From contig JAZLKG010000103.1 in NCBI GenBank assembly GCA_045597465.1, forward strand, positions 404-64,403: 64,000 nt of DNA. Direction: 5' to 3'. This stretch comes from Bacteroidales bacterium. GTDB lineage: Bacteria; Bacteroidota; Bacteroidia; Bacteroidales; UBA3824. Each line of letters begins with the position of its first letter. Position 1 is the first letter of the stretch. A model generated the notes under the pieces. The model did no database searches. It was given only the letters and a program-made list of their open reading frames with translations, and was not told the DNA's origin. Of the stretch, positions 2,016 through 60,983 are shown piece after piece. Made by a program: the position numbers and the translations under genes.

Positions 2016-2017
2016 AT

Positions 2018-2094: not shown

Positions 2095-2099
2095 CGTAA

Positions 2100-3590: not shown

Positions 3591-3610
3591 TGTCGATTAG
3601 TATTTAATGC

Positions 3611-4855: not shown

Positions 4856-4893
4856 AAAATTACTTTAGCCTTTTTAAACGTTTGTAAAACAAA

Positions 4894-7046: not shown

Positions 7047-7047
7047 A

Positions 7048-7980: not shown

Positions 7981-7984
7981 GATA

Positions 7985-8314
7985 TTAGTTTTTGAGTTTC
8001 TCGTTGCTGATATGGCGTGTGCTGTCGCGCTCGGTTTTCTTGCGGATGTTGCGCTCCAGAGCCTCCGTGAGGTCTATGCCGCACTGGTTGGCCAGACAGA
8101 TGACCACCCAGAGCACATCGGCAAGCTCGTCGGAGAGGTCCTTGTTCTTGTCGCTCTCCTTGGAACTCTGCTCGCCGTAGGTGCGCGATATTATGCGGGC
8201 CACCTCTCCCACTTCCTCGGTGAGTATGGCCATGTTGGTGAGCTGGCTGAAATAGCGTACTCCGTATTTCTTTATCCAGTCGTCAACGGTTTTCTGAGCC
8301 TCTGATATCGTCAT
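7985..8314 (-). CDS. MazG-like nucleotide pyrophosphohydrolase
   Basis: 109 aa. The EEVGEV...E..DVL pattern (LTEEVGEVARII, ELADVLWVV) is typical of the MazG domain. Confidence 0.8.
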   Translation of the reverse strand: MTISEAQKTVDDWIKKYGVRYFSQLTNMAILTEEVGEVARIISRTYGEQSSKESDKNKDLSDELADVLWVVICLANQCGIDLTEALERNIRKKTERDSTRHISNEKLKN

Positions 8315-8763
8315 ATCCTATTCTTGGAATCTATAATTATCGTTACGGGGCCGTCGTTTAGGAGGCGCACCTTCATGTCGGCGCCAAACTCGCCTGTCTG
8401 AATCTTCTTGCCTAAAGCCTTCTCCAATACATCGATGAAATGCAGGTACATCGGCTTGGCGATATCAGGCTTTGCGGCCATTATGTATGACGGGCGGTTT
8501 CCCTTCTTGGTCATGGCGTGGAGGGTAAACTGGCTTATGAGCAGTATGTCGCCATCCACGTCACCGATGGAGAGGTTCATTACACCCTCGCTGTCGTTGA
8601 AGACCCTGAGGCCCACAATCTTCTGGGCTATCCACTGGAGGTCTTCCTCGGTGTCGTCGGCCACAAAACCGGCCAGTATCATGTATCCGCCCCCTATCTG
8701 GCCCTTTACGGAGCCGTCTATGGTTACTGATGCCTCAGTAACCCGCTGTATTACTACCTTCAT
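8311..8763 (-). CDS. dtd: D-aminoacyl-tRNA deacylase
   Basis: 150 aa with MKVVIQRV... N-terminus, SQFTL and NDGPVT motifs. There is a 4-nt overlap with the downstream gene. Confidence 0.92.
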   Translation of the reverse strand: MKVVIQRVTEASVTIDGSVKGQIGGGYMILAGFVADDTEEDLQWIAQKIVGLRVFNDSEGVMNLSIGDVDGDILLISQFTLHAMTKKGNRPSYIMAAKPDIAKPMYLHFIDVLEKALGKKIQTGEFGADMKVRLLNDGPVTIIIDSKNRI

Positions 8764-8769
8764 GATATG

Positions 8770-9840
8770 TTAGCAGATTTTCTTGTCGGCCTCCAGCTCG
8801 GTCTGTTTCTTGAGTGGCTCGATGCCTTCCATCATCTTGCGGGTGTTGTAGATGTCGATGGCTGTGTATATGGCGTTGCGGAACGAAGTCTCGTCGGCCA
8901 CGCCCTTGCCTGCGATGTCGAATGCAGGGCCGTGTGTGGGTGCGGTGCATACCACAGGAAGGCCTCCCGTGTACTGCACGCCGTTGTTTTTCTCTATTAT
9001 TCGGAATGGCACAAGAGCCTGGTCGTAGGTCATTGCCAGTACTGCGTCAAATTTTCTGTAGCTCTCGGCTGCAAAGAAACCGTCGGCGTTGTATGGTCCG
9101 AAACATACTATGCCTTCCTCTGACGCCTTCAATATAGCGGGATGTATTTTCTCGCCCTCGTCCTGGCCAAAGACACCGTAATCGCTGGCGAAAGGATTCA
9201 GGCCCAATACGGCAATCCTTGGCTTGCGGATCGAGAAATCGTTGCAGAGGGTCTTGGCCAGGGTGCGTATCTTCCAGAGAATCTTGTCGGTAGTAATGGC
9301 TGCGGGTATGCTGCCCACAGGCATTGGGCTTGTAACAGTGGCCACCTTTACATTCTGTCCCACGAAAATCTGCACGAAATTGCGGCAGTTGAGCTCCTGA
9401 GCCACAGACTCAGGCAATCCCGCGAAACGGAATCCTGCGTCGTTGATGTTGAACTGGTTGGCAGGTGCTGCCACAAGTATGTCTATGAGATTGTTCTTTA
9501 GGTCGGCCTGGGCACGGTGGATGGCGGCCAGACTGCACTCACCAGCCTGAAGTGTGTTGCTGCCAAGCTCCACAAGGGCCTTGTCGTCGCATACGTTGAT
9601 AATGTTGATGGTCCTGGGCACCAGCTCGGTGGCGTCATTGGCGTTGTTTACTGTAATGTTGGGCAGATTGATCTGCTTGCGGTGAAAGGCAGCTATCTTG
9701 GACGATCCGTATATCACGAATGTACAGTCCTTGTACATGTCGGGATCCTGCAATGCCTTGAATATCACTTCGTATCCTATTCCGTTGATATCCCCTTGGG
9801 TGATACCAATCACATATTTGTTGTCGTTAGTCTTTTCCAT
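8770..9840 (-). CDS. pdxA: 4-hydroxythreonine-4-phosphate dehydrogenase
   Basis: PdxA-like length, with N-terminal GDINGIGYEV and C-terminal THGPAFDIAGKG motifs. Confidence 0.88.
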   Translation of the reverse strand: MEKTNDNKYVIGITQGDINGIGYEVIFKALQDPDMYKDCTFVIYGSSKIAAFHRKQINLPNITVNNANDATELVPRTINIINVCDDKALVELGSNTLQAGECSLAAIHRAQADLKNNLIDILVAAPANQFNINDAGFRFAGLPESVAQELNCRNFVQIFVGQNVKVATVTSPMPVGSIPAAITTDKILWKIRTLAKTLCNDFSIRKPRIAVLGLNPFASDYGVFGQDEGEKIHPAILKASEEGIVCFGPYNADGFFAAESYRKFDAVLAMTYDQALVPFRIIEKNNGVQYTGGLPVVCTAPTHGPAFDIAGKGVADETSFRNAIYTAIDIYNTRKMMEGIEPLKKQTELEADKKIC

Positions 9841-9924
9841 TAGTGTTATGAGTTTTGTTAATAGCCGGCATCAGATGCCAAACCAAACACAAAGGTAAAA
9901 AACTTTTCCCAAATATCCAAAACT

Positions 9925-10740
9925 CTATTCCATGGGATTTACACAAAGAACCGGAATTTTTGGCTCGTTTGCTATAATCTGCTGCTCTGTCGCACCGAGC
10001 ACGTAGTCCTGGAAACGGATATTCTTGGTGGTGGTGATTATTAATAGGCCCGCTCCTATCTGTACGGCAAAATCGACTGCGGAGTTAGACAGGCCCTCTC
10101 CGGCATCGAGTTTCTGAAGCTCGTAGTTGATCTGCTCGGCCTCCAGGTATTTCACGGCTGCGTGTATGTTGGCCTGGGTGCGCTTGTTGACCTGAGGCTC
10201 CAGGCTGTCGATATAGCAAATATAGAACTTGCACTTGAACACCCGTGACATGAACTTTGCCCAGGTGAGTTTCTGACGGTCTTCCTGCTTGAAATCCAGT
10301 GGCAACACGATTTTCAGGATTCCGGCCTGCCGTGGCTTGTCCTGAACCACGAGGAATGGAGCCTTGCATCCGGCTATGACCTTCAAGGCCCAGCTTCCTA
10401 TAAACTTCTGCAAACCCTTGATGCCATGTGTGCCCATCACAGCGAGCTCGGCGTTACACTGCTCCACCACGGCTTTTATCTCTGTGAAAATATTGCCTGT
10501 ACGCACAATCACCCCGGGGCGTATGCCGTATTCGGTCATCACACGCTCTGCCACAAGATTGAGGCGCTCCACATGTATGGCGTTGTCGAGCTCGGTCTCT
10601 GTTATATGCACCAGGATGATATCCCTGTCCAGCTGCAGGGCAAACTCTATCGCGTGCATCAGGGCGAACTCGGCCTTTTCGGAATAATCCCAAGGCACCA
10701 CTATGGGGCTTTTGTTTGATGCTGTATCCATTGTATCCAT
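9925..10740 (-). CDS. Universal stress protein (tandem UspA domains)
   Basis: 271 aa with two Usp-like halves. It contains the MGTHG.KG motif and a C-terminal ...VLCV pattern. Confidence 0.75.
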   Translation of the reverse strand: MDTMDTASNKSPIVVPWDYSEKAEFALMHAIEFALQLDRDIILVHITETELDNAIHVERLNLVAERVMTEYGIRPGVIVRTGNIFTEIKAVVEQCNAELAVMGTHGIKGLQKFIGSWALKVIAGCKAPFLVVQDKPRQAGILKIVLPLDFKQEDRQKLTWAKFMSRVFKCKFYICYIDSLEPQVNKRTQANIHAAVKYLEAEQINYELQKLDAGEGLSNSAVDFAVQIGAGLLIITTTKNIRFQDYVLGATEQQIIANEPKIPVLCVNPME

Positions 10741-10898
10741 TGTTTACAATAAATCCTAAAACTCACGGCTATATTACTAAAAAAATATTTAACCGCCAAA
10801 TAAAATATGCAATATGTGTTCCAAAAAAGAACCCCATTTCCTTGACTTTGCAAGAAAATGGGGTTTGTACTATACGATGGGAACTATGTTACGCATAA

Positions 10899-44066: not shown

Positions 44067-44547
44067 CACACATATATTATTAGGAACAAACCTTGGCGAC
44101 AGGGAGGGTTTCCTGAAGCTGGCCATAGAGCTGATAGAGCAGCGTGTGGGCCGCGTAACAAGGAAATCGCCGATATACGAAACCCAGTCGTGGGGGTATC
44201 AGGACAACGACTACCTGAACCAGGTGATAGTATGCGAAACCACGCTGAGCCCCGAGGAAACCCTGAAGGCCACAAGCCGGATAGAAAACGAGCTGGGGCG
44301 CATACGCGACAGGCAAGGATATCAGGCCCGCACAATAGACATCGACATTCTGCTATGCGGCAGCGAGGTGGTGGACTCCCCTACCCTGACGGTGCCTCAT
44401 CCAAGGATGCAGGAAAGGAAGTTTGTGCTGATACCTATGTGCCAGCTGGACGGGGACCTGATGCATCCCACTATCAACAAGACAATGAACGAACTTTTGC
44501 AGCAATGCACCGACAACTGCAACGTAAAACCATATAAACAGCAATGA
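44062..44547 (+). CDS. folK: 2-amino-4-hydroxy-6-hydroxymethyldihydropteridine diphosphokinase
   Basis: 161 aa with HPPK motifs (TIDIDIL, VPHPRMQERKFVLIPM). Confidence 0.9.
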   Translation: MNTHILLGTNLGDREGFLKLAIELIEQRVGRVTRKSPIYETQSWGYQDNDYLNQVIVCETTLSPEETLKATSRIENELGRIRDRQGYQARTIDIDILLCGSEVVDSPTLTVPHPRMQERKFVLIPMCQLDGDLMHPTINKTMNELLQQCTDNCNVKPYKQQ

Positions 44548-46520
44548 TCTCAGTAAACAACGTAACTGTTACATTCTCAGGCAACGACCTGTTTCAGGAT
44601 ATAAGTTTTGTAATCAACCCCAAGGACAGGATAGGTCTGGCCGGCAAAAACGGCGCGGGCAAATCCACATTGATGAAGGTGATTGTGGGCGAGCAGCCGC
44701 TGGAGCGCGGATCGGTAACCATACCGGGAGGCGTAAGCATTGGCTACCTGCCTCAGCACATGGACCTTCCTGCCGGCAGAACGGTGATGGAGGAAGCCCT
44801 TACCTGTTTCGACGAGGCCAAGCAGCTGGAGGCTGAGATCGCACAGCTGAGCAACGAGATTGCCACCCGCACCGACTACGAGAGCGACAGCTACATGGAC
44901 CTGATCCACCGCATGACCGAGGCCAACGACCGTCTGGAGATGATGGGGAGCAGCAAGAGAGAGGCTGAGACTGAGGTTGTACTGAAAGGTCTCGGTTTCA
45001 AGCAGACCGATTTCACACGTCAGACCTCGGAGTTCTCGGGCGGATGGAAGATGCGCATAATCCTTGCGAAGGTGATCCTGAGAAAGCCAAACGTGTTTCT
45101 CCTCGACGAGCCCACCAACCACCTCGATATTGAGTCAATCCAGTGGCTGGAGGATTTCCTGAAGGACTACGCCGGCGCAGTGGTGCTAATAAGCCACGAC
45201 CGCACATTCCTCGACAATGTTACCAAGCGCACCATCGAAATCTCTCTCGGAAAGATTTACGACTACAACGCACCTTATACCAAATATCTGGAACTCCGCA
45301 AGGAGCGCCGTCAGCAGCAGATATCGGCCTACGAGAATCAGCAGAAGATGATAAAGGAGACCGAGGATTTCATTGAGCGTTTCAGATACAAACCCACAAA
45401 ATCCAATCAGGTTCAGTCGAGAATCAAGATGCTCGACAAGATTGAGCGTCTTGAGGTGGATCTGGAGGACAACAGCAGCATCCATTTCAAGTTTCCACCG
45501 GCTCCAAGAAGCGGTCAGATTGTAGTGAAAGCCAATCAGATGACCAAGGCTTTCGGCGAGAAGGTGATATTGAAGGACATAGATTTTCAGCTGGAGCGCG
45601 GCGAGAAGGTTGCCTTTGTGGGCCGAAACGGCGAGGGCAAAACCACATTCTCACGCTGCATAATAGGTCAGCTGCCATACGACGGCGAGCTTAAGCTGGG
45701 CTACAACGTATCCATCGGCTACTACGCACAGAATCAGGACGAGCTTCTGGATCTGGAAAAGACAGTTTTCCAGACCTTGGACGACATAGCAACCGGCGAC
45801 ATGAGAACCAAGGTACGCGACATCCTTGGCGCATTCCTCTTTGGCGGCGAGGACATCGAGAAGAAGGTGAAGGTGCTTTCCGGCGGCGAGCGCGCACGAT
45901 TGGAGATGGCCAAGCTCCTCTTTGAGCCATACTCTCTCTTGGTGCTCGACGAGCCTACCAACCACCTCGACATCAGAAGCAAGGAAATCCTGAAGAAGGC
46001 ACTGCTGGCCTACGACGGCACAATAATCCTCGTAAGCCACGACCGTGACTTCCTCCACGGCCTTGCCGACACTATCTACGAGTTCAAGGACCAGAAGATA
46101 AAGCAATACAAGGGCGACATCAGCTACTTCCTGGAAAAGCTGAAGCTGGAGAATATGAAGCAGTTTGAGGCTCAGAAGCCCACTGCGGCCAAGCTACAGG
46201 AAACCCAGGCATCAGCCACTAAAAACACCCCCGAGGCCGATACCGCAGCACCCGCCGCCGGCAGCAAGGAGGATTACATGCTGCGCAAGGAAAAGGAGAA
46301 AAACCTCCGCAAGCTGAAGACCCAGGTGGAGAAATCCGAGCAGAGGATAGCCCAGCTGGAAAGCGAGATGCAGGCCATAGAGAAGAAGCTAGAACTGTCT
46401 GAAAACCAGACCGATATGGACCTCTTTAAGCAATACGACAACATAAAGGCCGAGCTGGAAAACGAGATGAATTTCTGGGAGGAGGCCACCATGAAGTACG
46501 AGGAGGCGTCGGCAGAATAA
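44544..46520 (+). CDS. ABC-F family ATPase (no transmembrane domain)
   Basis: Two ABC cassettes (GKNGAGKST / LSGGWKMR; GRNGEGKTT / LSGGERAR) and a C-terminal coiled-coil tail. Confidence 0.92.
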   Translation: MISVNNVTVTFSGNDLFQDISFVINPKDRIGLAGKNGAGKSTLMKVIVGEQPLERGSVTIPGGVSIGYLPQHMDLPAGRTVMEEALTCFDEAKQLEAEIAQLSNEIATRTDYESDSYMDLIHRMTEANDRLEMMGSSKREAETEVVLKGLGFKQTDFTRQTSEFSGGWKMRIILAKVILRKPNVFLLDEPTNHLDIESIQWLEDFLKDYAGAVVLISHDRTFLDNVTKRTIEISLGKIYDYNAPYTKYLELRKERRQQQISAYENQQKMIKETEDFIERFRYKPTKSNQVQSRIKMLDKIERLEVDLEDNSSIHFKFPPAPRSGQIVVKANQMTKAFGEKVILKDIDFQLERGEKVAFVGRNGEGKTTFSRCIIGQLPYDGELKLGYNVSIGYYAQNQDELLDLEKTVFQTLDDIATGDMRTKVRDILGAFLFGGEDIEKKVKVLSGGERARLEMAKLLFEPYSLLVLDEPTNHLDIRSKEILKKALLAYDGTIILVSHDRDFLHGLADTIYEFKDQKIKQYKGDISYFLEKLKLENMKQFEAQKPTAAKLQETQASATKNTPEADTAAPAAGSKEDYMLRKEKEKNLRKLKTQVEKSEQRIAQLESEMQAIEKKLELSENQTDMDLFKQYDNIKAELENEMNFWEEATMKYEEASAE

Positions 46521-47534: not shown

Positions 47535-47548
47535 AGGGGGAGGAAGGA

Positions 47549-47703
47549 TCTATTTTCCTTGTCTCAGGAACATCAAATGTCATAGTTACAGTACACATAG
47601 CGATATTTGTTAAGGTTACAAGGCAAACAATTTATTTCAAATAAGGAAATTATTGGGGAAGAAAAAAGTTTGTTCGGCATGAGATACCGGACAAACTTTT
47701 CTT
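47549..47703. repeat. Direct repeat copy 1 (about 155 bp), including a bidirectional terminator hairpin at 47664-47700
   Basis: Roughly 90% identical by eye to 49796-49951; the first 76 nt differ at one position. It contains a decayed copy of the 5' end of the small gene at 49672-49887, and the aaaagtttgttcgg/ccggacaaactttt stem. Confidence 0.9.
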
Positions 47704-47778
47704 TATCACATAGGCAATAGTATCAACTATGCAAACAAATCGCAAATAAAATTGCCAACTGACTTTCCTCCGCGAAGG

Positions 47779-48039
47779 CTATTTTACATACTTATCTTTC
47801 CAAACCTGTTTGTACTCAATTGTATTCTCCGAATGGTCGTCATAATCATAATACAAATTAAAATGACCATTTTTTTCGAAAACTAATGTCTGAACAAACC
47901 ACTTCTTTTCATTATAATCTGACAACAAAATCTGATACAGTTTATCGAAACAACCACGCACTGAATTTCTCGAAATATTATATTCCTTCTCCAATGCGAA
48001 ACATTGAACAAAGCGTCCTTCTACCAAAGTATAGAACAC
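47779..48039 (-). CDS. Small hypothetical protein (possibly a truncated immunity-protein-like domain)
   Basis: 86 aa. It starts 5 nt after the ATPase stop. The WFVQTLVFEKNGHFNLYYDYDD pattern resembles cytoplasmic immunity proteins, but this is a weak impression only. Confidence 0.45.
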   Translation of the reverse strand: MFYTLVEGRFVQCFALEKEYNISRNSVRGCFDKLYQILLSDYNEKKWFVQTLVFEKNGHFNLYYDYDDHSENTIEYKQVWKDKYVK

Positions 48040-48044
48040 AAATT

Positions 48045-49490
48045 CTATGGCTGGAGGGGATGAGGTAGGGATTGTATTAAATCATCAAGAACAACCTCAC
48101 TATTTACAACCGAGGAGTGTTTGCCGGGTTTTACTCCCAATGGGGTGATAAAAGTCTGAAGAATACTCTTGCCGCATTTGGACACACGGGCAAACAATGC
48201 CGCACGTTCCCGCAAACGCTCCTCGTAATCCTTGTCTATCACAAACTTGGTTTGGGAGAATTTTATCTCGCAAAGATTCACAAAGCCCTCACCATGATCC
48301 AATATAAGGTCTATCTGCGCCGACTCCTCATCAGAACGATACGACCATGAACTTACATCACTTGCAAGTGTATCAATCCTTAGAGCCGACCTAATTTGAG
48401 GAATATGGTTGAGACACGTCTGCTCAAAGGCATAGCCATACCAATTAGTTTTTACAGTCTCCTTTACCTTGCTCCAAGCTTCAGAATCATGCCCCTTGTA
48501 TTCTTTTACAAATCGAAGATAAAACAATACGTACATATCAGTAAGCTGATACATGGATTCTTTCACCTTCTTTCCGTAGGCATTGTAGCAACGGATAAAA
48601 TCACATTTGCAAAGATTATCGAGAATCTCCGACAAATGGCCGTTTTCCTGCAATTTGAGCTCGCGAAGAATCTCAGACCGAGTAAGCCCCTTCAGTTTGG
48701 TGGCAATCACTTCCACAATCCGCCTATACGAGACGGCCTCATTAAACAACGACCTGAAAAGGAAATCATACTCGTCCCTAAGTGGACCTTCCTCAGAGAA
48801 AAACAAGGTGTTGATATTCTGTTCCAAACTGAGCGATGGCTGCATCATGCTCAAATAAAACGGGATTCCTCCAATAGTCATATAACTCTGCAAAACTGTC
48901 ATTCTTGTCCAATCGAAACCATTCCGTTTCAGATATAGCTCGGTCTCCAAAAGAGAAAAAGGACTCAATTTAATACGACGGGTAACCCTGTTGTGGAGGC
49001 CACCCTTGTCGCCAAGCAATGTATTTGTCATCCAAGTGGTTGACGAGCCACAAACAATAAGCTTAAGTTTATTCTGCTCCGAGGCCCACATATTCCAAAA
49101 AGCCTCCAATGCACGTACAAAATTGGACTTGGGAGAATCGTGCCAAGGCAATTCATCAATGAATACCACAATCCTCTTTTTCTTGATCTCGGAAAGGAAT
49201 TTACGCAATTCAGCAAAAGCCTCAAACCAAGTGCTTAAGGTCTTGATACTGCGGTTTGAATACAATTCAAGCTGAATTCTGAAATTCTCAAGTTGGTCCT
49301 TGAGGTCCAAACCGAAAATTCCAGAAGTATAAAAATCAAATTTGTTTTTGAAATACTGCTTTATCAGATATGTCTTGCCAACTCTGCGTCTTCCATAAAC
49401 AGCAATAAATTCTGCCCGTGGAGATTCCATACAATACCTCAAGACATCTTGTTCGTGACGCCTTCCTACTACTTCCTTTGCGTATGCCAT
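48045..49490 (-). CDS. P-loop ATPase (ATPase_2/Arch_ATPase-like) fused to a PD-(D/E)xK-like C-terminal domain (DUF234-like)
   Basis: Walker A GRRRVGKT, Walker B VVFIDELPW and C-terminal QIDLIL...LCEIKF. Start set at MAYAKEVVGRR (49490). Paralogue of 59550-60983. Confidence 0.82.
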   Translation of the reverse strand: MAYAKEVVGRRHEQDVLRYCMESPRAEFIAVYGRRRVGKTYLIKQYFKNKFDFYTSGIFGLDLKDQLENFRIQLELYSNRSIKTLSTWFEAFAELRKFLSEIKKKRIVVFIDELPWHDSPKSNFVRALEAFWNMWASEQNKLKLIVCGSSTTWMTNTLLGDKGGLHNRVTRRIKLSPFSLLETELYLKRNGFDWTRMTVLQSYMTIGGIPFYLSMMQPSLSLEQNINTLFFSEEGPLRDEYDFLFRSLFNEAVSYRRIVEVIATKLKGLTRSEILRELKLQENGHLSEILDNLCKCDFIRCYNAYGKKVKESMYQLTDMYVLFYLRFVKEYKGHDSEAWSKVKETVKTNWYGYAFEQTCLNHIPQIRSALRIDTLASDVSSWSYRSDEESAQIDLILDHGEGFVNLCEIKFSQTKFVIDKDYEERLRERAALFARVSKCGKSILQTFITPLGVKPGKHSSVVNSEVVLDDLIQSLPHPLQP

Positions 49491-49520
49491 ACCTGCGATT
49501 ATTATGTTATTTTGAATGCG

Positions 49521-49528
49521 CAAATATA
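49521..49528 (-). promoter_or_regulatory. Bacteroidota -7 box for the left ATPase gene
   Basis: TATATTTG on the minus strand, 31 nt upstream of ATG 49490. The identical octamer precedes the paralogue at 59522-59529. Confidence 0.45.
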
Positions 49529-49546
49529 ATAATAAATTCATTATAC

Positions 49547-49585
49547 CAGGGCGGAATCCACAAAAAAAACATAGATTCCGCCCTG
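49547..49585. other. 12-bp-stem hairpin between the small lipoprotein gene and the ATPase promoter
   Basis: cagggcggaatc ... gattccgccctg with an A8-containing loop. Confidence 0.6.
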
Positions 49586-49671
49586 ATATAAAAGAGCAAT
49601 TTTAAAGTTAGGTAATTGCAAATCGAGCGGTTAAGATTGTAAAAAAGAGATTATTATTGAAAGAATTTTTC

Positions 49672-49887
49672 TCACAATTCTACAATTCCTCTTGTATTAG
49701 AATCCCGGTTTCTTCTGATCTCATTTACGAATTCCTCAGCAGTCATATTGTCGTCCTGCCATTTGCCACGGAACTCTTCTGTCCAAGGTTTATTATCTAT
49801 TTTCCTTGTCTCAGGAACATCAAATGTCATAGTTATAGTACACATAGCGATATTTGTTAAGGTTACAAGGCTGGCAATTAATTTCAA
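49672..49887 (-). CDS. Small hypothetical protein with lipoprotein-like signal
   Basis: 71 aa, MKLIASLVTLTNIAMC... Its 5' end lies inside direct repeat copy 2. Confidence 0.45.
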   Translation of the reverse strand: MKLIASLVTLTNIAMCTITMTFDVPETRKIDNKPWTEEFRGKWQDDNMTAEEFVNEIRRNRDSNTRGIVEL

Positions 49888-49951
49888 ATATAGAAATTAT
49901 TGGGGAAGAAAAAAAGTTTGTTCGATATGAGATACCGGACAAACTTTTCTT
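49796..49951. repeat. Direct repeat copy 2, including the bidirectional terminator hairpin at 49912-49948
   Basis: See copy 1. On the minus strand the hairpin plus T-run follows the stop of the 137-aa gene (49994). Confidence 0.9.
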
Positions 49952-49993
49952 AATAGGAATAAAAGGTCTATCTTTGGGACAAAGAGTTATTCT

Positions 49994-50407
49994 TTATTTC
50001 AAAATCTTGATTCCAACATAGATTGCATCAGCAACTCCAGCATTAGAGTATATAGTAGTCGCCGCAAAATCCTTACCTTCAATATTTACACTATTAGTAT
50101 CCTTATAAGTCACTTTCAAATAATCTAAATCAAAGCGTCTCACAAAAGACTTTAACAATTCTATGGTAATCATATTGTTAGGTGAACACAACTCATCAAT
50201 AATCAATTTGCGTCGAATAGCATACAACTTTTTCAACTCAGCATCAATCTCCTTGTTTGACACACCATTGATATGAGGCAACACAAACAGATCCATAGCC
50301 TTTTGTATTATCGGACGAGGTTGTATAGCAATGGGAAGGATAAAATGCTTCTTCCTTTCCAACTCCTGAATCTTTTTTTCGATTTCTGGCAATGACAATT
50401 GTTCCAT
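49994..50407 (-). CDS. Hypothetical protein, third gene of the dynamin-like cluster
   Basis: 137 aa with AT-rich codon usage matching the two upstream genes. It lies 73 nt downstream of the second GTPase gene. No motif recognised. Confidence 0.6.
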   Translation of the reverse strand: MEQLSLPEIEKKIQELERKKHFILPIAIQPRPIIQKAMDLFVLPHINGVSNKEIDAELKKLYAIRRKLIIDELCSPNNMITIELLKSFVRRFDLDYLKVTYKDTNSVNIEGKDFAATTIYSNAGVADAIYVGIKILK

Positions 50408-50466
50408 ATATTAATTGTATTAATACCGACGTCATCACAACCGCGTCGGCGGTATTAAACTAGTTA

Positions 50467-50474
50467 CAAAATTA
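50467..50474 (-). promoter_or_regulatory. Possible internal -7 box ahead of the 137-aa gene
   Basis: TAATTTTG on the minus strand, directly after the stop of the GTPase gene. Confidence 0.3.
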
Positions 50475-50480
50475 ATTATA

Positions 50481-52175
50481 TTAGGCCTCCTCCCATTCTA
50501 CATCCTTAATATCTGAACCGTAAAATTTATCAAGTTTAGCCTTATACATACCAAGCTTGTTCAACTGAGATTTCAAATCTGCAATCTCTTGATCACGCTC
50601 CTCAACTTGTTTTTTCAGTTCCAAATAAGCAGGAGCATAATTCTTGTAATATGCATCATCACTGTTGAACTCTTCGAATATGGAGGCAAAAAAGTTGTTG
50701 ATCTCTCCTTTCAAATCTTCCTTGAGTATTTCACATTCCTCAGTCTTTTTCTTTTTCTGCCACCAATCGTAAATAGCCATACCGATATCCAAAACCACAC
50801 CGGCGATAGCAATTCCCTTGGAGATATTCTTTGCGAGATTAACAGCTCCATAAGGCTTGAACTTCACGGCAGGAGCAATTAAATTCCTTGCTGCCAAAAC
50901 GGTTTTGTTTGAAATATTGAGACCCTTCGCAGCCTTCATTCCTGTCTTCAAGCCCTCCTGAACCATCTGATTTTGTTTTTTGAAGGAAACTTCAATATCT
51001 CCACTAAACTTACTCATCTTATGAACATTCGATTCTGTACATGACTTAATGAGCAAATTGATTTTGGCTATAAACAAGTAAAAAGAAACCTTTTTATCTT
51101 GAATTCCCAAATGAGTTTCTACAACACTGCCAATAGTCTCATAATTTGCATTGCTAATTTCGGAAACGATGAAATCCTTAAACTGAGTCAAAGACTCAAA
51201 CAAATCATCCCTATTAGTTTTCAAAGACTTCTCTGTTCTATCCAATCCATCATGCAAATGTTTTTGTTCAAACTCACAACTATCCAATGCCTTATTTAAA
51301 GGCAAGATTTCATACTCGATAGTCTTTCCCACAGAGGAAACCACATCCTTGACAGAAGCAAGAACAGACGAATTTTGAAGCTCAGAAACATCGCTATTAT
51401 CAACAACAGAATCCAACACTTTACGTAAATCTCCAATATGAGAACGTTCCATATAGTCGTCAGATTTAGCGAACCAATACTTGAGCCCCTTACCTTTAGG
51501 ATCGGCGGCAATACAAGCAATGTTCAAACAATCAGTTTCTGATTTCGAAAGATTGATTTCATTCTGGAACCTGGTCCTCAAATTTTCCTTTCTAATACGT
51601 GCTGCATCACAAAACTCCTCTTCATCCAAAACATCACATACAGCATCCATCTTATTGATTACAAAGATTGTATTAGGTAATTTATTGTAATCACGCAAAA
51701 CACGCTTCAAGACAGGAATATGACTTTGTTTGATAGGGTTAACTGCGCCACATACGTATATAACTATATGAGCCTCTGATATATACTTCTCAGTAATGGA
51801 AGAGAACTTTACCATTTGGCCATCAATCTCCTTTTCCTTAGTTCCAAAGAGACCTGGGGTATCAACAATCTCAAAACCCTCTCTTAGACCATCAGGACGA
51901 TAAATCGTCAACTCATCTGAAGATTCGTCATTGTCAATTTTCATAGAATCTTCAAGACGACCAAGCAAAGCAGCGATAACGCTTGTTTTTCCATCAGAGA
52001 AGCTACCAAGAAGTACAATCTTGGTGACACCTACAGACAAGGTTCTCTTGACCTCGTCAATTTTGGAGATCAATTCAGAGACGTCAAGTCCCAACTCCTG
52101 ACCTTCCTTAAGGATTGCATCCAATTTTGAAAAATCATAATTGGAGTTTTTGCTAGCGAAATTATAGACTTCCAT
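50481..52175 (-). CDS. Dynamin-like GTPase B (BDLP/LeoA-like) with C-terminal hydrophobic paddle
   Basis: G1 GSFSDGKTS, G3 DTPGLFG, G4 NKMD. Long helical stalk-like region, hydrophobic GIAIAGVVLDIGMAIYDWW and a C-terminal coiled coil. Confidence 0.8.
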   Translation of the reverse strand: MEVYNFASKNSNYDFSKLDAILKEGQELGLDVSELISKIDEVKRTLSVGVTKIVLLGSFSDGKTSVIAALLGRLEDSMKIDNDESSDELTIYRPDGLREGFEIVDTPGLFGTKEKEIDGQMVKFSSITEKYISEAHIVIYVCGAVNPIKQSHIPVLKRVLRDYNKLPNTIFVINKMDAVCDVLDEEEFCDAARIRKENLRTRFQNEINLSKSETDCLNIACIAADPKGKGLKYWFAKSDDYMERSHIGDLRKVLDSVVDNSDVSELQNSSVLASVKDVVSSVGKTIEYEILPLNKALDSCEFEQKHLHDGLDRTEKSLKTNRDDLFESLTQFKDFIVSEISNANYETIGSVVETHLGIQDKKVSFYLFIAKINLLIKSCTESNVHKMSKFSGDIEVSFKKQNQMVQEGLKTGMKAAKGLNISNKTVLAARNLIAPAVKFKPYGAVNLAKNISKGIAIAGVVLDIGMAIYDWWQKKKKTEECEILKEDLKGEINNFFASIFEEFNSDDAYYKNYAPAYLELKKQVEERDQEIADLKSQLNKLGMYKAKLDKFYGSDIKDVEWEEA

Positions 52176-54039
52176 ATTTTTTACTTCTTAAATTTTCAGC
52201 GTATTCACGGATTCGCAATTGAGTTGACTTTATTGACGAATCAATAGTGTTCAATTTTGAAATTGACTCATCCACAGAACGAACAACATTATCTTCTTTA
52301 TTCTCAAACTCTTCATTGATAAAAGGCAATGATTTTGAATGAAAATTATCGATTGTTGTTTTACGTGCTTTCTCTATTTCAACTCTGGCTTTATTCTGTG
52401 CCTCTCTTATTTTTTCACTTCTATCCTTAAAGATAGAAACCAGAATACCAAAAACAGCACCTACAACTGCCCCTATTGCAGTACCAAGAACTGGAATAAC
52501 TGACCCCAAGCCGGCTCCTGTTCCTGCGTAACCTAATACGCTCAAAACATCAGAACCGAAATCACCCCAATTATAATCCATATTTTCAGTAATTTGCCCT
52601 GCTTGAATACCTTGTACAGAAAATGGAGTAAACGAAACATTGAAATAAGCCTGTTTCTTCTTTACATCATTCTTGATTGAAGCAACGGCACTATTAATTG
52701 CATGCTTTATACCATTTTCTATATTGTATTTCAAAATAGACTCAGCTCCATCGAAATTTTGAATTTCCTGAACGATACTTCGTTCAACTTCATCCTTGAA
52801 TTGATTGAAGGCTCCATTAATTTCCAAATCACATTGTTTCCTCAAATGAATTTTGGCATCATCGAAAATTTCAGCAATAGCATTTTTGAAATTATTGTGT
52901 TCCTGTAATTTACGACTTATGATTTCGCTCTGCTCTGTTGTAGTTGCAGAGAATGACTTATAGGCTCTTTTAATCAGAGAAACAAGTTTATTTTTATTTG
53001 ACTCAACAATCTCCTCTTGGGCATTCTTAGACTTCTTGAAAACCAAATCTACCAAAACCTGAAACTGCGAGAATTGAAGAACTTCACTTGAACTACCAAA
53101 ATACTTCAAAAGTTTCTTCTGATTTTTAATCAAATCTTGACGCTCAGATGAGAATGTGGCGTTAGCACACATTGCCAAATATGCCTGCAATGCAATACTT
53201 CCTTGATAAGTGTCTTTCCCAAGGAAAGCCTCAAAAGTATCATATATCAAACTATTGGTCTTGATGACAGAATCAGTCAGCAAAGTCTCTCGCTCAGACT
53301 CCTCGTCGTAATTGCCAACTCCACCCTTGATATTGTATATGGAATAAACCTTAGCGCCATCGCTAAGATACCTTTTAATTTTCTCTGCTGTTGCGGAATT
53401 AGGTTTCTGATTCTCACCCTGTACATAAAAAATAATATGAGCCTTAGAAAGACCTTTCAAGATATTGTCCTTGACCTCATTTTCATTACCCTCAATACCT
53501 GGCACATCAATCAGAGTAAAATCTATACCATTGATTGTCAAATCGTACTCTGAGTAATCACGGGTAAAGTCATGACGACCATCACCGACAATAAGACCAT
53601 CGTTATTAGATTTTCTATTCTTGTCAAAAAGAATTCTGAAAGTCTCAACAATTGTGGATTTACCTGCGTTGGTCTCGCCGAAAAATCCAACGACAAGCCT
53701 ATCCCAAACCTGATTATTCAAAGACCTATCGGCTAAATCTACAGCTTCATCAATTTGCGTACTAATAGCAGACACATAGGCATCCTTAATGGAATTGAAC
53801 CTAGTGTCATCGTCGTAAATTGACGAAATATCGCGTCTAACTTCCTGTAAAATATTTATATAATCCTTGTAAACTCCTTCCATTTTTTCCTTATTGGACT
53901 TTGTATATTCGTCCAACAACTTTACAAAAGAAGTCTTAGCATTATCCATCGCTGACTGGAAACGAGTCCTTCCTTCCTTCCCCCAATCAGCAATACCATT
54001 GGTTATTAAATTTAACAATGGTCGATTATCCATTTGCAT
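52162..54039 (-). CDS. Dynamin-like GTPase A with glycine-zipper membrane segment
   Basis: G1 GETNAGKST and G3 DVPGIEG, but no canonical N/TKxD. Hydrophobic VLSVLGYAGTGAGLGSVIPVLGTAIGAVVGAVFGILVSIF. Start set at ATG 54039 (MQMDNRPLL). Its stop overlaps the next ATG by 14 nt. Confidence 0.75.
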   Translation of the reverse strand: MQMDNRPLLNLITNGIADWGKEGRTRFQSAMDNAKTSFVKLLDEYTKSNKEKMEGVYKDYINILQEVRRDISSIYDDDTRFNSIKDAYVSAISTQIDEAVDLADRSLNNQVWDRLVVGFFGETNAGKSTIVETFRILFDKNRKSNNDGLIVGDGRHDFTRDYSEYDLTINGIDFTLIDVPGIEGNENEVKDNILKGLSKAHIIFYVQGENQKPNSATAEKIKRYLSDGAKVYSIYNIKGGVGNYDEESERETLLTDSVIKTNSLIYDTFEAFLGKDTYQGSIALQAYLAMCANATFSSERQDLIKNQKKLLKYFGSSSEVLQFSQFQVLVDLVFKKSKNAQEEIVESNKNKLVSLIKRAYKSFSATTTEQSEIISRKLQEHNNFKNAIAEIFDDAKIHLRKQCDLEINGAFNQFKDEVERSIVQEIQNFDGAESILKYNIENGIKHAINSAVASIKNDVKKKQAYFNVSFTPFSVQGIQAGQITENMDYNWGDFGSDVLSVLGYAGTGAGLGSVIPVLGTAIGAVVGAVFGILVSIFKDRSEKIREAQNKARVEIEKARKTTIDNFHSKSLPFINEEFENKEDNVVRSVDESISKLNTIDSSIKSTQLRIREYAENLRSKKYGSL

Positions 54040-54470
54040 CAAAAACAAAATTTCCGGGCTCCTTGGGAAGTTAAACATCAATGTAACCACACATAAAAAA
54101 AGCGTGGAGCCGTACATCACCCGTCCCACGCTCAAAAGGCCTTCGCTATGCCCGCTAATATCGGAAACGAGCAATGCGAAAACCCCACACTATGGTATAA
54201 TAACGCCACACCACACCCATAGAGGGTACGGCATAGGTGTATATACACAGCCATAGGGCATTCCACATTGCCTTGCATCGACATTAGCTTAGAAGTTGCG
54301 AAGTTCTTTGAGCGCCGAAACAAGGCGTGTAAACGCCTTAATATGTAAAAAGTGGAACAGGCAAACCAACTTGCCCATTCCACTTGCAATATTACAATTT
54401 ATTATTTTAAAAGCAAAGAAATCTCGGAGATTTTTTTATGACCTTTTCAAAAGCGCCTGAACATCATCCT

Positions 54471-55469
54471 CTACTTCAATCCGAACGCCTCGCTGTAAGG
54501 AATCAATCCGTGTTCCTTCTCGTGATTGATCCATGCGGTCTCCTGATGACTGCGCTCGATTATCGAGGAAGTTGAGAGAGCGCCGAAAGTTGACAACACA
54601 CCGTCGAGTACGCCAATTTCATATTTTGATAAAATGGAAGTATCGCCATCATATTCCGCAGAAAGAGTGGCACATTCCATTTCGTGATAAATCTGAACAC
54701 GTTTCTCCAATCCCGGAATATTGTCGTAAATAGTATCGTAATGATCAGGTACGGGGCCAAATTGGATTGCCCTATATTGCAAACCACTGATAGAGCACCC
54801 CGACCTTCTGAAATTATAGAAGTCGGAATAAAACATCATCTTGTTGAGTTTGGTAGGACTAACACCCTTGCATCTTGTCACTAAATACTTTACCATCGCA
54901 GACACCTTGGCCGGATTGTGCGAGCCATATCCATTCATAATGTCAACGGAACGGTTTCTACCATAAATTATGGATTTCAGGGAATCATCAGGATTGAACT
55001 CATCAACGGATTTCACCTGATTCAAGAGTTTGTCATATTCAGACTCCGAAAACTCAGAACGGCTACTTTCGAGCAACGACAACATAGTTGACTTGTTTGT
55101 GACAGCACGTATCATTTTGCCGTTGGACTCCGAAGGCATACATCCATCCTCGTACTGTTTCCACTGGTTGACACCGAATCCCATTATCTTTGAGATTTGT
55201 GTATAATTCATTCCATATCTGAGCCTGATACTTGTTATCTCCTCGGGGAAAGGAACTCCGTGGCGAATTCTCCACTGACTATAAACCTCATTGACCCAAA
55301 GATCTTCCTGATCATCGCCTGTAAACTGTTCACCGGTATCCTCACAGACATAATAACGGCAGTGCACCTGAAATTTCTCCTTGCGGAACTCGCGCTCCTC
55401 CTCATCAAAAACCTCAAACACACGACCTCCAGTAAATGGACTTCTCAATGCTGTCAATTTCTTTTCCAT
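54471..55469 (-). CDS. Antitoxin-like fusion: MqsA-type ribbon/XRE-HTH N-terminus plus Panacea (DUF4065)-like C-terminus
   Basis: N-terminus SPFTGG...HCRYYVCEDTGEQF and HTH MNYTQISKIMGFGVNQWKQYEDG. C-terminus KLNKMMFYSDFYNFRRSGCSISGLQYRAIQFGPVP. Start set at MEKKLTALRSPF (55469), 11 nt after the toxin stop. Confidence 0.7.
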   Translation of the reverse strand: MEKKLTALRSPFTGGRVFEVFDEEEREFRKEKFQVHCRYYVCEDTGEQFTGDDQEDLWVNEVYSQWRIRHGVPFPEEITSIRLRYGMNYTQISKIMGFGVNQWKQYEDGCMPSESNGKMIRAVTNKSTMLSLLESSRSEFSESEYDKLLNQVKSVDEFNPDDSLKSIIYGRNRSVDIMNGYGSHNPAKVSAMVKYLVTRCKGVSPTKLNKMMFYSDFYNFRRSGCSISGLQYRAIQFGPVPDHYDTIYDNIPGLEKRVQIYHEMECATLSAEYDGDTSILSKYEIGVLDGVLSTFGALSTSSIIERSHQETAWINHEKEHGLIPYSEAFGLK

Positions 55470-55479
55470 AACGACCTCC

Positions 55480-55773
55480 CTATTTCTTGAACGCATAATT
55501 GATCGGGTGCTCAGCTTCGTGGAATGATATACAAATTGTGTTGCTGACGCCATAACTCACGGCGTCAGAGATTGTCTCCACGTAATCACTCACCTCGATA
55601 CTTCTTACAACCTCTTCCCTATACTTTCGGGTAATACCCAAAGCAAGCAAGGCCCGTTCATTCTTTTCTCTATTGAGAAAGAAAATGCCGAAAATATCAA
55701 ACTTGGGCATAAAATGACGCAGAAAGGACTCAACCTCTTGCTGTGTTTTTATCATATTGCTCATAACTAACAA
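55480..55773 (-). CDS. MqsR-family-like toxin (short; possibly internally deleted)
   Basis: ALLALGITRKYREEVVRSIEVSDY and the C-terminal ICISFHEAEHPINYAFKK match my recollection of Bacteroidota MqsR-like toxins. The segment between them seems shorter than usual. Alternative starts at 55764 or 55755. Confidence 0.6.
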   Translation of the reverse strand: MLVMSNMIKTQQEVESFLRHFMPKFDIFGIFFLNREKNERALLALGITRKYREEVVRSIEVSDYVETISDAVSYGVSNTICISFHEAEHPINYAFKK

Positions 55774-55789
55774 TAAAAATTATCGAAAG

Positions 55790-55797
55790 CAAAATTA
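55790..55797 (-). promoter_or_regulatory. -7 box for the toxin-antitoxin operon
   Basis: TAATTTTG on the minus strand, just upstream of the toxin start. It is preceded by the hairpin 55800-55838, which ends the DUF418 gene. Confidence 0.4.
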
Positions 55798-55848
55798 CAC
55801 TTTTTAGTTAGATTTTAAAAATATTTTTCACTAAAAAGTTCATCCCCT

Positions 55849-57673: not shown

Positions 57674-57775
57674 TGTGTTTTGTAGTTTTTTTGGGGTTAT
57701 AACGATTTGACTATGGCAGAGGGAGGAGGTTTAATTTTTTATCATAACTGCCCAAAAGCTCAACCTTTTTTTCGC

Positions 57776-57875
57776 AGAATTTGCACAGATTCTCAAGTTT
57801 TGAATCAGGAATTCCCAAAAATTGCCCAAAATCTCAATATTTTCTTTGAGGAATTTGCACAGATTCTCAAGTTTT
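57776..57875. repeat. Pair of 26-bp perfect direct repeats
   Basis: gaatttgcacagattctcaagttttg occurs at 57776-57801 and at 57850-57875. Between them lies ttcccaaaaattgcccaaaatctc, related to the GCCAAAA words at 59.1-59.5 kb. Confidence 0.85.
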
Positions 57876-58000
57876 GGAGGATTCTGAATTTTCAGTTATA
57901 ACTGAAAAAAAAAATAGGCAGACTTGAAGTCCGCCTAATTTTATAGAACTCATAGCCGTAAAACAGTCCGCATCTTATTCCACGATATATAACGCCGAAA

Positions 58001-58714: not shown

Positions 58715-59129
58715 AATAAATTGTTTTTTTAGAGCATTGTCACTGCCTAAAAACGTTGATGACCAAGCACAAAAAACGTGGACAAACTATATCCACATTC
58801 CAGGTGCTTGGTCATACCTTGTCCGAAAGATATAAGTTGATGCCCACGCAATAGCGCGAGCATTCGCAACTCATCCTAATTCGGACATCCTTATGCGACC
58901 AAGCTTCGGAATGTTTTTAGAATAGTAGCAAACGCTAGTTAATAATATGTTAATTAATTGTACGCAAATAAATTACGTAATTGAGACCATTGTTTTTGTA
59001 ATAATGATTTCAACATTGACAAAATTGATAATAATTTGTCGAAAAAACAAATGATTGAACGATTATTTTTATTTACCTCGGCCTCACGTAGCCGACAATA
59101 TCAATAGTGCAGTACCAATTTTCCCTCCA

Positions 59130-59510
59130 CTAAATTGCCAAAAGTTGCAAAAATCACAACTTTTGGCAATTTAGCGTATGATAACTCGCCATTAACTCAA
59201 AAAAATTGAGATTTTGGCGAGTTATCGTTATTATAACTCGCCATTAACTCGAAAAAATTATGATTTTGGCAAAATAAACACCAATTAAATTGCCAAAAGT
59301 CACAAAAAACACAACTTTTGGCAAAATAAACATCAACTAAATTGCCAAAAGTTACATTTTTGAGAGATTTTGGCAATTTATCACCATAATAACTCGCCAT
59401 TAACTCGAAAAAATTTTGATTTTGGCGAGTTATCATTATCATAAAATGCCAAAATCATAAAAAAAATGAGATTTTGGCAAATTATCACTATCATAAAATG
59501 CCAAAATCTA
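59130..59510. repeat. Dense array of at least six hairpins built on TTGCCAAAA/TTTTGGCAA and ATAACTCGCCA/TGGCGAGTTAT words
   Basis: Hairpins at 59130-59174 (18-bp arms), 59180-59226, 59290-59323, 59339-59379, 59389-59433 and 59447-59479. Direct repeat tatcataaaatgccaaaatc at 59437 and 59489. Confidence 0.85.
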
Positions 59511-59521
59511 AAAATAATACG

Positions 59522-59529
59522 TATATTTG
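59522..59529 (+). promoter_or_regulatory. -7 box for the right ATPase gene
   Basis: TATATTTG lies 21 nt upstream of ATG 59550. Confidence 0.45.
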
Positions 59530-59549
59530 CATCATAAATTCCAAGCACA

Positions 59550-60983
59550 ATGAACATAATAGGACGCATAAACGAGATAAAAAAACTTGAAGACTTGTAC
59601 CAAAGCGACAAGTCTGAATTCGTTGCAATATACGGCAGACGACGTGTCGGCAAGACTTTTCTAATAAAAGAATTGTTCAAAAAACGTCTGACATTTTATC
59701 ACACAGGACTTTCTCCGTATGACAAATACGATGGGAATCATATGCACAATCAGATAAAAGCCTTTTACAATAGCATGATGGCCTTTGGATTAGAGCCTGA
59801 CGAAAAACCACTAAACTGGTTGGAAGCATTCTTCATGCTTGAAAGAGCCCTCTCCAAAATCGACGAAGGTCAACGAATAGTAATATTCATAGATGAATTA
59901 CCCTGGATGGATACACCCAAATCGCTATTCATAACAGCTTTGGAGCATTTTTGGAACAGCTGGTGCAATTATAGGGATAATGTAATGCTGATTGTTTGCG
60001 GTTCTGCAACATCGTGGATGGTCCACAATCTGATAAACAACAAAGGCGGATTGTACAACCGACTTACATATAACATAAAACTTGAGCCGTTTACACTTTT
60101 GGAATGTGAGAGATATTTCAAAAGCAAAAACATGGCAATGAGTCGTTACGACATAGTAGAAACATATATGGCTGTAGGTGGAATCCCTATGTATTTGAGC
60201 CAATTTGAAAAAGGTCTTAGTGTACCAAAGAATCTAGACAAAATCATATTCAACAAGAACGCTATCCTCCAACTGGAATTCAAAAGGCTGTTCGGCTCAC
60301 TCTTTATAAATCCTGAAGCCTACGAGAAAACTATAAAAGCCATTGCGAAAACAAGATCAGGAAGCACAAGAAACGAAATAATAAAGGAGACCAACATGAA
60401 ATCAGGGAAAGGCATTTCCACGATATTAGACAACTTGGAAGCCTGCGACTTTATAATACACTACAAGCCATACGACACCAAGAAAACTGTAAAATACAAA
60501 CTAGTTGACCCATTCATACAAACTTGGCTTTCGTTTATGGCAGACAGTAAGCCCAAAGACAATTTCTGGGAGTCAAACTACAAAACCAACACTCTGAACT
60601 CATGGAGGGGACTGGCTTTCGAGAACGTATGCTTCAACCACATCAGACAAATCAAAAACAAACTGGAATGTGGAGGCGTACTTAGCATAGAACAACCCCT
60701 TATAATATACGGAGAAGACGGCAAAACAGAAACTCAGATAGATATGTTGATTATCAGGAATGACAACGTGGCAAATCTTTGCGAGATTAAATTCTGCAAA
60801 GACGAGTTTGCAATAGATGAAAAATACAGGAGAAAAGTAGAGGCTCGAGCCGACAAACTACTGGAGACTCTCCCCAAAAAAAGTTCCGTACACATAACAT
60901 TCATCACCACATTCGGAGTAAAGCAGAATATGTATTCCGGCATAGTGCAAAACTCGGTAACTATGGAGGATTTGTTTTTGTAA
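59550..60983 (+). CDS. P-loop ATPase (ATPase_2-like) fused to PD-(D/E)xK-like C-terminal domain, paralogue of 48045-49490
   Basis: Walker A GRRRVGKT, Walker B VIFIDELPW and C-terminal QIDMLI...LCEIKF. Confidence 0.82.
   Translation: MNIIGRINEIKKLEDLYQSDKSEFVAIYGRRRVGKTFLIKELFKKRLTFYHTGLSPYDKYDGNHMHNQIKAFYNSMMAFGLEPDEKPLNWLEAFFMLERALSKIDEGQRIVIFIDELPWMDTPKSLFITALEHFWNSWCNYRDNVMLIVCGSATSWMVHNLINNKGGLYNRLTYNIKLEPFTLLECERYFKSKNMAMSRYDIVETYMAVGGIPMYLSQFEKGLSVPKNLDKIIFNKNAILQLEFKRLFGSLFINPEAYEKTIKAIAKTRSGSTRNEIIKETNMKSGKGISTILDNLEACDFIIHYKPYDTKKTVKYKLVDPFIQTWLSFMADSKPKDNFWESNYKTNTLNSWRGLAFENVCFNHIRQIKNKLECGGVLSIEQPLIIYGEDGKTETQIDMLIIRNDNVANLCEIKFCKDEFAIDEKYRRKVEARADKLLETLPKKSSVHITFITTFGVKQNMYSGIVQNSVTMEDLFL

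Follow-up and report, generated by a model that had tools for sequence, protein, structure and literature searches.

Does a tandem pair of dynamin-like GTPase genes, followed by a small gene that resembles no described family, represent a new kind of defence module or a known system with an extra neighbor? This question is raised by a locus at positions 49,994 to 54,039 of a 64,000-nt stretch of DNA (hereafter the window) from an uncultured Bacteroidales bacterium of the UBA3824 lineage (assembly GCA_045597465.1, contig JAZLKG010000103.1, positions 404 to 64,403). The original prediction, made from the letters alone, had proposed a membrane-acting defence or stress module that may depart from the described two-gene type. 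Judged by its sequence, the locus is an ordinary Eleos (LeoBC + LeoA) system and a fairly divergent new Bacteroidales member of that family. The reading preferred here, to which a probability of roughly 0.8 is given, is that of a horizontally acquired Eleos anti-phage module lying in a variable defence hotspot, in which LeoBC and LeoA would form a membrane assembly and the small gene (gene C) would be a lineage-restricted accessory. The unit consists of the following features:

52162-54039, minus strand: gene A, leoBC, encoding a fused LeoC+LeoB dynamin-like GTPase of 625 aa, counted from the ATG at 54039
50481-52175, minus strand: gene B, leoA, encoding a LeoA/HP0731-family dynamin-like GTPase of 564 aa
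50408-50480, minus strand: spacer between leoA and gene C, 73 nt
49994-50407, minus strand: gene C, candidate accessory gene, 137 aa, with a C-terminal domain of ~60 aa ending in IYVGIKILK
49909-49951, minus strand: hairpin terminator closing the leoBC-leoA-C unit, dG -16.5 kcal/mol, z -6.7

The gene pair belongs to the Eleos family

Eleos models exist in both DefenseFinder and PADLOC, and the system is said to have been formerly named 'Dynamins', in the work of Millman et al. 2022. Both of its proteins are present in the window, LeoBC in the fused form, and their genes are adjacent and co-oriented. LeoA matches the PADLOC model LeoA PDLC03840 (E = 1.4e-148, residues 13-553 of 564), the NCBIfam LeoA/HP0731 model NF041922 (467 bits, with a cutoff of 325) and the Pfam families DLP_helical (3.5e-54) and Dynamin_N, as well as the crystallised LeoA of enterotoxigenic Escherichia coli (ETEC; PDB 4AUR, 2e-89, residues 18-547). 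The PADLOC models LeoB (3.1e-98, residues 140-623), LeoBC (8.5e-94, residues 44-605) and LeoC (3.8e-15, residues 49-143) all fall on the single LeoBC polypeptide, which is also matched by MMR_HSR1 and Dynamin_N in Pfam. Since the PADLOC LeoA and LeoBC profiles span both proteins end to end, the standard models would call the locus Eleos. Eleos has been described as a two-gene antiphage system composed of LeoA and LeoBC (bioRxiv 10.1101/2022.12.12.520048), and a defence or membrane-acting role is the best reading of the pair. For phage protection by this locus, the support comes from its context, with defence-type neighbors in a variable island.

The motifs of the dynamin superfamily are found in both proteins. 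LeoA has a canonical G1 (GSFSDGKTS, residue 57), G3 (DTPGLFG, residue 105) and G4 (NKMD, residue 174), and LeoBC has G1 (GETNAGKST, residue 121), G3 (DVPGIEG, residue 178) and, at the G4 position, N-I-K-G from residue 236, within YNIKG at 235. A hydrophobic paddle with a glycine zipper occurs at residues 508-539 of LeoBC (Kyte-Doolittle 2.26), and a further hydrophobic paddle at residues 444-473 of LeoA (Kyte-Doolittle 1.65); together with DLP_helical on LeoA, these segments point to a BDLP/LeoA-type architecture. The leoBC stop codon (TAA, 52164-52162) lies beyond the leoA ATG (52175), giving an overlap of 14 nt. The reading frame of leoBC remains open beyond the ATG at 54039 as far as a TTG at 54174, and the alignment with the PADLOC LeoBC model and with relatives begins only at residue ~41-50, hence translation may actually begin at an internal ATG (53949 or 53883) and not at 54039.

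To place the pair among its relatives, 91 related LeoA loci were collected (L001-L007, the 80 metagenomic loci L095-L174, and L175-L178). Their LeoA proteins are 39-53% identical to that of the window and are the nearest in the databases searched, while in 75 loci the protein encoded just before LeoA is 33-57% identical to the window LeoBC. A gene-order table was drawn up for L001-L007 and L095-L174, and wherever a tabulated locus extends far enough upstream, a LeoBC homologue immediately precedes LeoA, the tblastn match to LeoBC typically ending ~11 nt inside that to LeoA. The called genes of L175-L178 follow the same LeoBC-then-LeoA order. The closest relatives have no overlap between the two genes but a gap of 6 nt. 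The shared order and the usual short overlap across loci indicate that coupling is a family trait. No LeoA relatives were found by a scan of IMG/VR, nor any relative by a contig scan with LeoA alone, for which the peptide patterns were too specific.

The same holds for the unusual G4 of LeoBC. When 68 distinct LeoBC homologues were aligned, this position was found to be occupied by N in 68/68, V or I in 68/68, R or K in 68/68 and G in 64/68 sequences. The family as a whole thus has N-[VI]-[RK]-G as its consensus, and the non-canonical G4 in the window is no argument against membership of the LeoBC family.

Most of what the original prediction had described was borne out. Its three open reading frames (ORFs), their motifs and hydrophobic stretches, the 14-nt overlap, the 73-nt gap and the closing hairpin were all recovered, and the hidden Markov model (HMM) searches by which it proposed to check the two dynamin-like GTPases (Pfam, NCBIfam and PADLOC) returned a dynamin-like or Leo match for both proteins, which these models and the PDB match assign to the LeoA and LeoBC types. 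The suggestion that the combination departs from the described two-gene type does not survive, as the G4 motif and the gene order are family norms and PADLOC covers both proteins: the deviant G4 is conserved across the 68 aligned homologues, and an adjacent, mostly overlapping LeoBC-LeoA pair is seen across related loci. The main practical result is hence a correction, namely that the locus is a standard Eleos, that its odd G4 is a family trait and that its extra gene is sporadic.

Compared with described Eleos systems, the locus has both defining proteins with full-length HMM matches, adjacent, co-oriented and in the order leoBC then leoA, within an accessory island. It differs in that its LeoA is only 39-53% identical to the nearest relatives, in that a 137-aa gene of a rare family precedes the terminator, and in being known here from genes alone. 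The comparison with LeoA, LeoB and LeoC of ETEC H10407 (PDB 4AUR; PMC4159319) shows full-length LeoA homology, a second dynamin-like gene directly upstream, hydrophobic paddles and, by expectation, hetero-dimerisation. However, a single polypeptide combines LeoC and LeoB in the window, and the part of the LeoC model beyond position 97, which includes the C-terminal membrane anchor in ETEC, is unmatched in the window LeoBC. The ETEC genes also differ in lying in the tia pathogenicity island and in having been assayed for vesicle secretion rather than for defence against phages.

A low-GC island at a variable position

The GC content drops to 35-38% at 49-54 kb, compared with ~50% in the rest of the window. 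At third codon positions (GC3) it is 0.32 in leoBC, 0.38 in leoA and 0.36 in gene C, against 0.63-0.72 in the flanking core genes. The segment concerned is:

47548-55800, no strand: low-GC accessory island with the Leo module, delimited by composition and synteny

Synteny was examined by using the ABC-F gene (44544-46520) as an anchor. Its product is 93% identical to that of L011 (metagenome-assembled genome JAZQPB010000150), with which the window is colinear from 35.8 kb to 46526, and the similarity ends at the ABC-F stop codon. Beyond this gene, L011 encodes a hydrolase, an SNF2 helicase and an AAA protein, and the Eleos pair is absent at that position. In L009, a genus-level relative, the same ABC-F and AIR-synthase-like flanks enclose a different content, which includes a PDC-S27 homologue. 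The synteny break and the differing content of L011 and L009 identify 46.5-61 kb as a variable hotspot. Neither a tRNA in 40-64 kb nor an integrase among the ORFs scanned was found, and the island borders are those set by composition and synteny only. The view that the genes lie in a compositionally foreign segment adjoining a toxin-antitoxin pair is thus upheld by the low GC content, the loss of synteny after ABC-F and a neighbouring Panacea-type antitoxin, and the Leo genes do occupy a variable island at this locus when compared with L011 and L009.

Gene C and its rare relatives

No match to gene C was found in Pfam, PADLOC, NCBIfam, PHROG or PDB, and a word-indexed search of 5.8e9 proteins with its product returned only itself. 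A HMMER search over 1.84e9 representative proteins yielded one credible relative, P0122, a protein of 144 aa (E = 1.7e-5), which is 30% identical to C over its full length and shares the conserved blocks PNxxIT..LKS.V....YL..TY and IYS..GV...Y.G. This full-length homologue with conserved blocks indicates that C is a real gene. A profile built from C and P0122 gained no further relatives. Two members of the P0122 cluster, P0126 and P0127, are encoded on contigs of 41-47 kb (L089 and L091). Their genes belong to a closely spaced same-strand array that lies 1.1 kb downstream from two tandem Dynamin_N genes (573 + 599 aa), whose products match the Leo models weakly (LeoBC 1.2e-17, LeoA 3e-14). A third Dynamin_N protein of 778 aa is encoded farther upstream.

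In an all-against-all comparison, three other small proteins were found to share the ~60-aa beta-rich C-terminal domain of C. One is an 86-aa paralogue in L089 that ends in LYVGQKITA; the others are encoded in L005-L007 by tandem genes of 104 and 110 aa, which lie immediately after LeoA and end in LYVGQKITAS. The L005-L007 pair is Eleos-type, and its LeoA is 52% identical to that of the window. Leave-one-out HMMs of the C family, run against 24,581 six-frame ORFs from the loci collected by then, recovered C at 1.4e-9, with noise from ~0.1. Scanning the five C-family members against Pfam and PHROG yielded scattered coiled-coil noise only, and a scan of IMG/VR gave no C-family relatives. The predicted model of C suggests, at the level of secondary structure, which is all that can be stated from it, two N-terminal helices followed by a beta-alpha-beta4 domain.

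The metagenomic L089 cluster spans 1906-10893, with the same coordinates in L091. Besides the three Dynamin_N proteins (778, 573 and 599 aa), it encodes seven small proteins on the same strand, among which are two C-domain proteins and a 149-aa CxxC protein. A counterpart of the latter (42% identity) follows the C-like genes in L005. Like the window, the L089/L091 cluster has a LeoBC-like then LeoA-like tandem and small same-strand genes, including the only full-length C homologue; it differs by its weak Leo-model matches, its third Dynamin_N protein of 778 aa and five further small proteins that are not in the window.

The 137-aa gene had been described as an orphan without recognisable motif. 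It is indeed without a database family match but it is not a pure orphan, having one distant full-length homologue and three domain-level relatives. The idea that the three genes might co-occur in related genomes fails, a C-family gene being found only in the window, L005-L007 and the L089 group. Of about 88 other LeoA loci sampled, 76 of which have 600 nt or more downstream, only the L005-L007 lineage carries a relative, and C is thus a sporadic, lineage-restricted companion and no core Eleos component. Its role as a lineage-restricted accessory gene is plausible but unproven. The new point is that C belongs to a very rare small-protein family so far seen only beside dynamin-like pairs, the evidence that ties it to these pairs being suggestive but thin.

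Proposed mode of action

By extension from the literature on LeoA, BDLP and DynA, LeoBC would be anchored in the cytoplasmic membrane through its glycine-zipper hydrophobic hairpin (508-539) and would form a heterotypic dynamin-like assembly with LeoA. GTP binding or hydrolysis may need both partners, a feature that would fit their synthesis from overlapping genes. In ETEC, LeoA alone binds no GTP, and hetero-dimerisation with, or activation by, LeoBC has been proposed (PMC4159319). Upon phage attack, the assembly would remodel or stabilise the membrane, so that either entry is blocked or lysis and the release of progeny are delayed. Gene C would most likely provide an adaptor, regulator or sensor acting on the pair by means of the conserved beta domain at its C-terminus.

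As a mechanistic analogy, B. subtilis DynA is the best available: its membrane binding is needed for phage protection, and it delays lysis and limits phage spread (PMC12998192). DynA likewise has two cooperating dynamin-like units, essential membrane binding through a paddle and population-level protection via delayed lysis. However, it is a single fused polypeptide encoded by a chromosomal housekeeping gene of Firmicutes, and its sequence relationship to the window proteins is at superfamily level only.

A number of points weigh against this picture. No published Eleos mechanism was found in the literature, Bacteroidales Eleos systems, this locus included, are known from genes alone, and LeoABC of ETEC was characterised as a vesicle-secretion factor, not as a defence system (PMC4159319). 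With regard to gene C, its link to L005 consists of a short domain with a leave-one-out E-value of 1.2e-4 in a small database, and its AlphaFold2 models have low confidence, with a predicted local distance difference test score (pLDDT) of 47.7 for the sequence alone and 55.8 with a two-sequence alignment. When the model was compared with PDB by Foldseek, nothing scored below E = 1. None of L001-L004, L095-L174 and L175-L178 contains the C domain, and most of the closest loci (50-53% identity) are among these. Finally, no TAnnTTTG motif occurs in 54040-54470 upstream of leoBC, and C may have its own promoter in the spacer.

Is gene C part of the system?

The alternative that survives best, at somewhat less than even odds, is that the locus is a plain two-gene Eleos and that C is an independently transcribed hitch-hiker functionally unconnected with the GTPases. 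Outside L005-L007, the LeoA loci sampled have no C-like ORF, and the consistent co-occurrence that a three-component Eleos variant (the pair plus the C family) would show was not found, as C-domain ORFs are confined to the window, L005-L007 and the L089 group. The genes downstream of LeoA are, moreover, highly heterogeneous and include toxin-antitoxin pairs, small transmembrane peptides and Zn-ribbons, and in L089 three other small genes stand between the C homologue and the GTPase pair. However, the only independent homologue cluster in 1.84e9 proteins lies again behind a dynamin-like pair on the same strand, the domain relatives of L005-L007 directly follow LeoA, and the dynamin-like pair is the sole neighbor common to all three C-family contexts. 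ABC-F-anchored Bacteroidales loci totalling 1.34 Mb, taken as a rough control, contained no such GTPase; hence the adjacency of an independently found C homologue to a dynamin-like pair is unlikely to be due to chance (~1% or less).

Transcription signals bear on the same question. The spacer holds a promoter-like TAATTTTG at 50467-50474, which conforms to the Bacteroidetes -7 motif TAnnTTTG, precedes C by 60 nt and would favor independent transcription. This motif is not enriched across the window overall, which leaves promoter statements weak. Against the hitch-hiker reading of C stands its GC3 (0.36), which matches that of the pair and not the 0.46-0.48 of the neighbouring cassettes, together with its position before a shared terminator. 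The terminator hairpin was equalled in stability by 0/200 shuffles and has an A-tract and a T-tract on either side; a simple terminator scan missed it because its stem is AT-rich. Gene C may thus be co-transcribed with the pair, separately transcribed, or both.

A hairpin in the leoA-C spacer was considered as an internal terminator and rejected as not significant (z = -0.71). Scans for sigma-70 promoters and simple terminators gave counts at or below shuffle expectation and were uninformative.

Small third genes behind LeoA

A broader view of gene C would be that Bacteroidales Eleos-type pairs are not strictly two-gene systems and carry, in third position, a fast-evolving and exchangeable small gene that tunes or triggers the GTPases. 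This view is tentative and, on present evidence, rather unlikely. Of the LeoA loci, 76 extend 600 nt or more past the gene, and in 46 of these a same-strand ORF starts within 250 nt of LeoA. About 17 of these 46 ORFs follow LeoA in tight coupling (gaps of 5-26 nt) and form a mixed set, encoding single-transmembrane peptides of 48-59 aa and proteins of 78, 98 and 190 aa. Two further small proteins are encoded near LeoBC-LeoA pairs on the same strand: DUF6140 (~74 aa, ~35 loci) and a Zn-ribbon-like CxxC...CPxC protein of ~70 aa (~30 loci). Their genes lie either upstream of LeoBC or downstream of LeoA (e.g., L005 6046-6270; L002 3306-3521), and the window has neither. It is therefore common in this clade for a small gene to accompany the pair, its identity varying from locus to locus.

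Candidates for such an exchangeable gene would be the C family, the 48-59-aa transmembrane peptides, the 78- and 98-aa proteins, DUF6140 and the ~70-aa Zn-ribbon, with a role, for example, as phage sensor, membrane adaptor or inhibitor released on infection. If this view were correct, the gene C of the window would open a dynamin-associated accessory family as its first recognisable member. Because no Eleos mechanism has been published as far as was found, a recurrent partner would be a possible handle on how phages are sensed or blocked. The novelty is modest, amounting to a rare domain of small proteins whose link to dynamin-like pairs is seen in three contexts. Small heterogeneous third genes are common behind LeoA in gut and rumen Bacteroidales and are worth retaining in Eleos constructs.

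The 48-59-aa proteins have a single C-terminal transmembrane helix and follow LeoA in several Prevotella-type loci (e.g., L097 7740-, L158 4506-, L145 2805- and L103 7921-). The gap that separates them from LeoA is 6-26 nt in most loci and ~230 nt in the L103 group. These proteins are possible unannotated membrane partners.

A vesicle or envelope function

An improbable alternative to immunity concerns the pair itself, which would be a membrane-vesicle or envelope-maintenance module of gut Bacteroidales, involved in outer-membrane vesicle release or the repair of envelope stress. Knockouts of leoA and leoB in ETEC cut vesicle-associated secretion by ~50% (PMC4159319), DynA also responds to pore-forming antibiotics (PMC12998192), and the predicted membrane-binding paddles in both window proteins would suit such a function. 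However, a maintenance role sits poorly with the patchy distribution of the pair, which is absent at this position in the closest genome, with the foreign composition of the module and with its defence-type neighbors (PDC-S27 twice and a Panacea toxin-antitoxin pair, described below), and the LeoA + LeoBC family is listed as an antiphage system. The vesicle or envelope role and the defence role are not mutually exclusive.

That C is a spurious ORF, as its lack of any family or structure match and its low AlphaFold2 confidence could suggest, is very improbable and effectively refuted by its full-length homologue (30% identity) and leave-one-out recovery (1.4e-9), a chance 137-codon open frame at 35% GC being expected at ~5e-5 per frame (an estimate from base composition) and C lying on the same strand as the pair at a 73-nt spacing with a terminator after it.

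Neighbouring genes and repeats

Around the Eleos module, the following features were recorded:

47779-48039, minus strand: truncated YezG-like immunity gene, 86 aa, matching only positions 62-130 of the 146 of the model
48045-49541, minus strand: PDC-S27 ATPase a (PADLOC 5.5e-185; ATPase_2 + DUF234)
49672-49887: orf71
54471-55553, minus strand: Panacea antitoxin, 360 aa, with an MqsA-like Zn-ribbon/HTH N-terminus and a SocA/Panacea C-terminal domain
55480-55773, minus strand: 97-aa ORF overlapping and preceding the Panacea gene, without family match
59550-60983, plus strand: PDC-S27 ATPase b (PADLOC ~1e-185; ATPase_2 + DUF234), beyond two core-like genes

The truncated 86-aa YezG-like ORF is probably what is left of an immunity gene against a polymorphic toxin, and the 97-aa ORF is a candidate novel toxin of a Panacea-type toxin-antitoxin pair. 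No Leo locus has a counterpart of orf71, the 97-aa ORF, the YezG fragment or a 237-aa ORF, and these are therefore placed outside the module. In the island, TAnnTTTG is found 20-60 nt upstream of the starts of PDC-S27a (with a probable internal start at ~49490), orf71 and the 97-aa ORF, and likewise upstream of those of PDC-S27b and the AIR-synthase-like gene.

The two PDC-S27 proteins, which are candidate defence ATPases, are 39% identical, lie on opposite strands and flank the Leo island; two more homologues are found in L009. A direct repeat of ~160 nt occurs at 47548-47706 and 49795-49954, with identities of 94% and 83% over its two parts, and it includes the Leo terminator hairpin and the 5′ end of orf71. 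Its copies bracket the truncated YezG-PDC-S27a cassette, which suggests that the cassette was inserted or exchanged there by recombination. Directly upstream of PDC-S27b (ATG 59550), ~6-8 copies of a 52-nt imperfect palindrome or hairpin unit occupy 59126-59536. Related units lie at 57746-57876, and the array could be a repetitive extragenic palindromic (REP)- or miniature inverted-repeat transposable element (MITE)-like element or a regulatory array.

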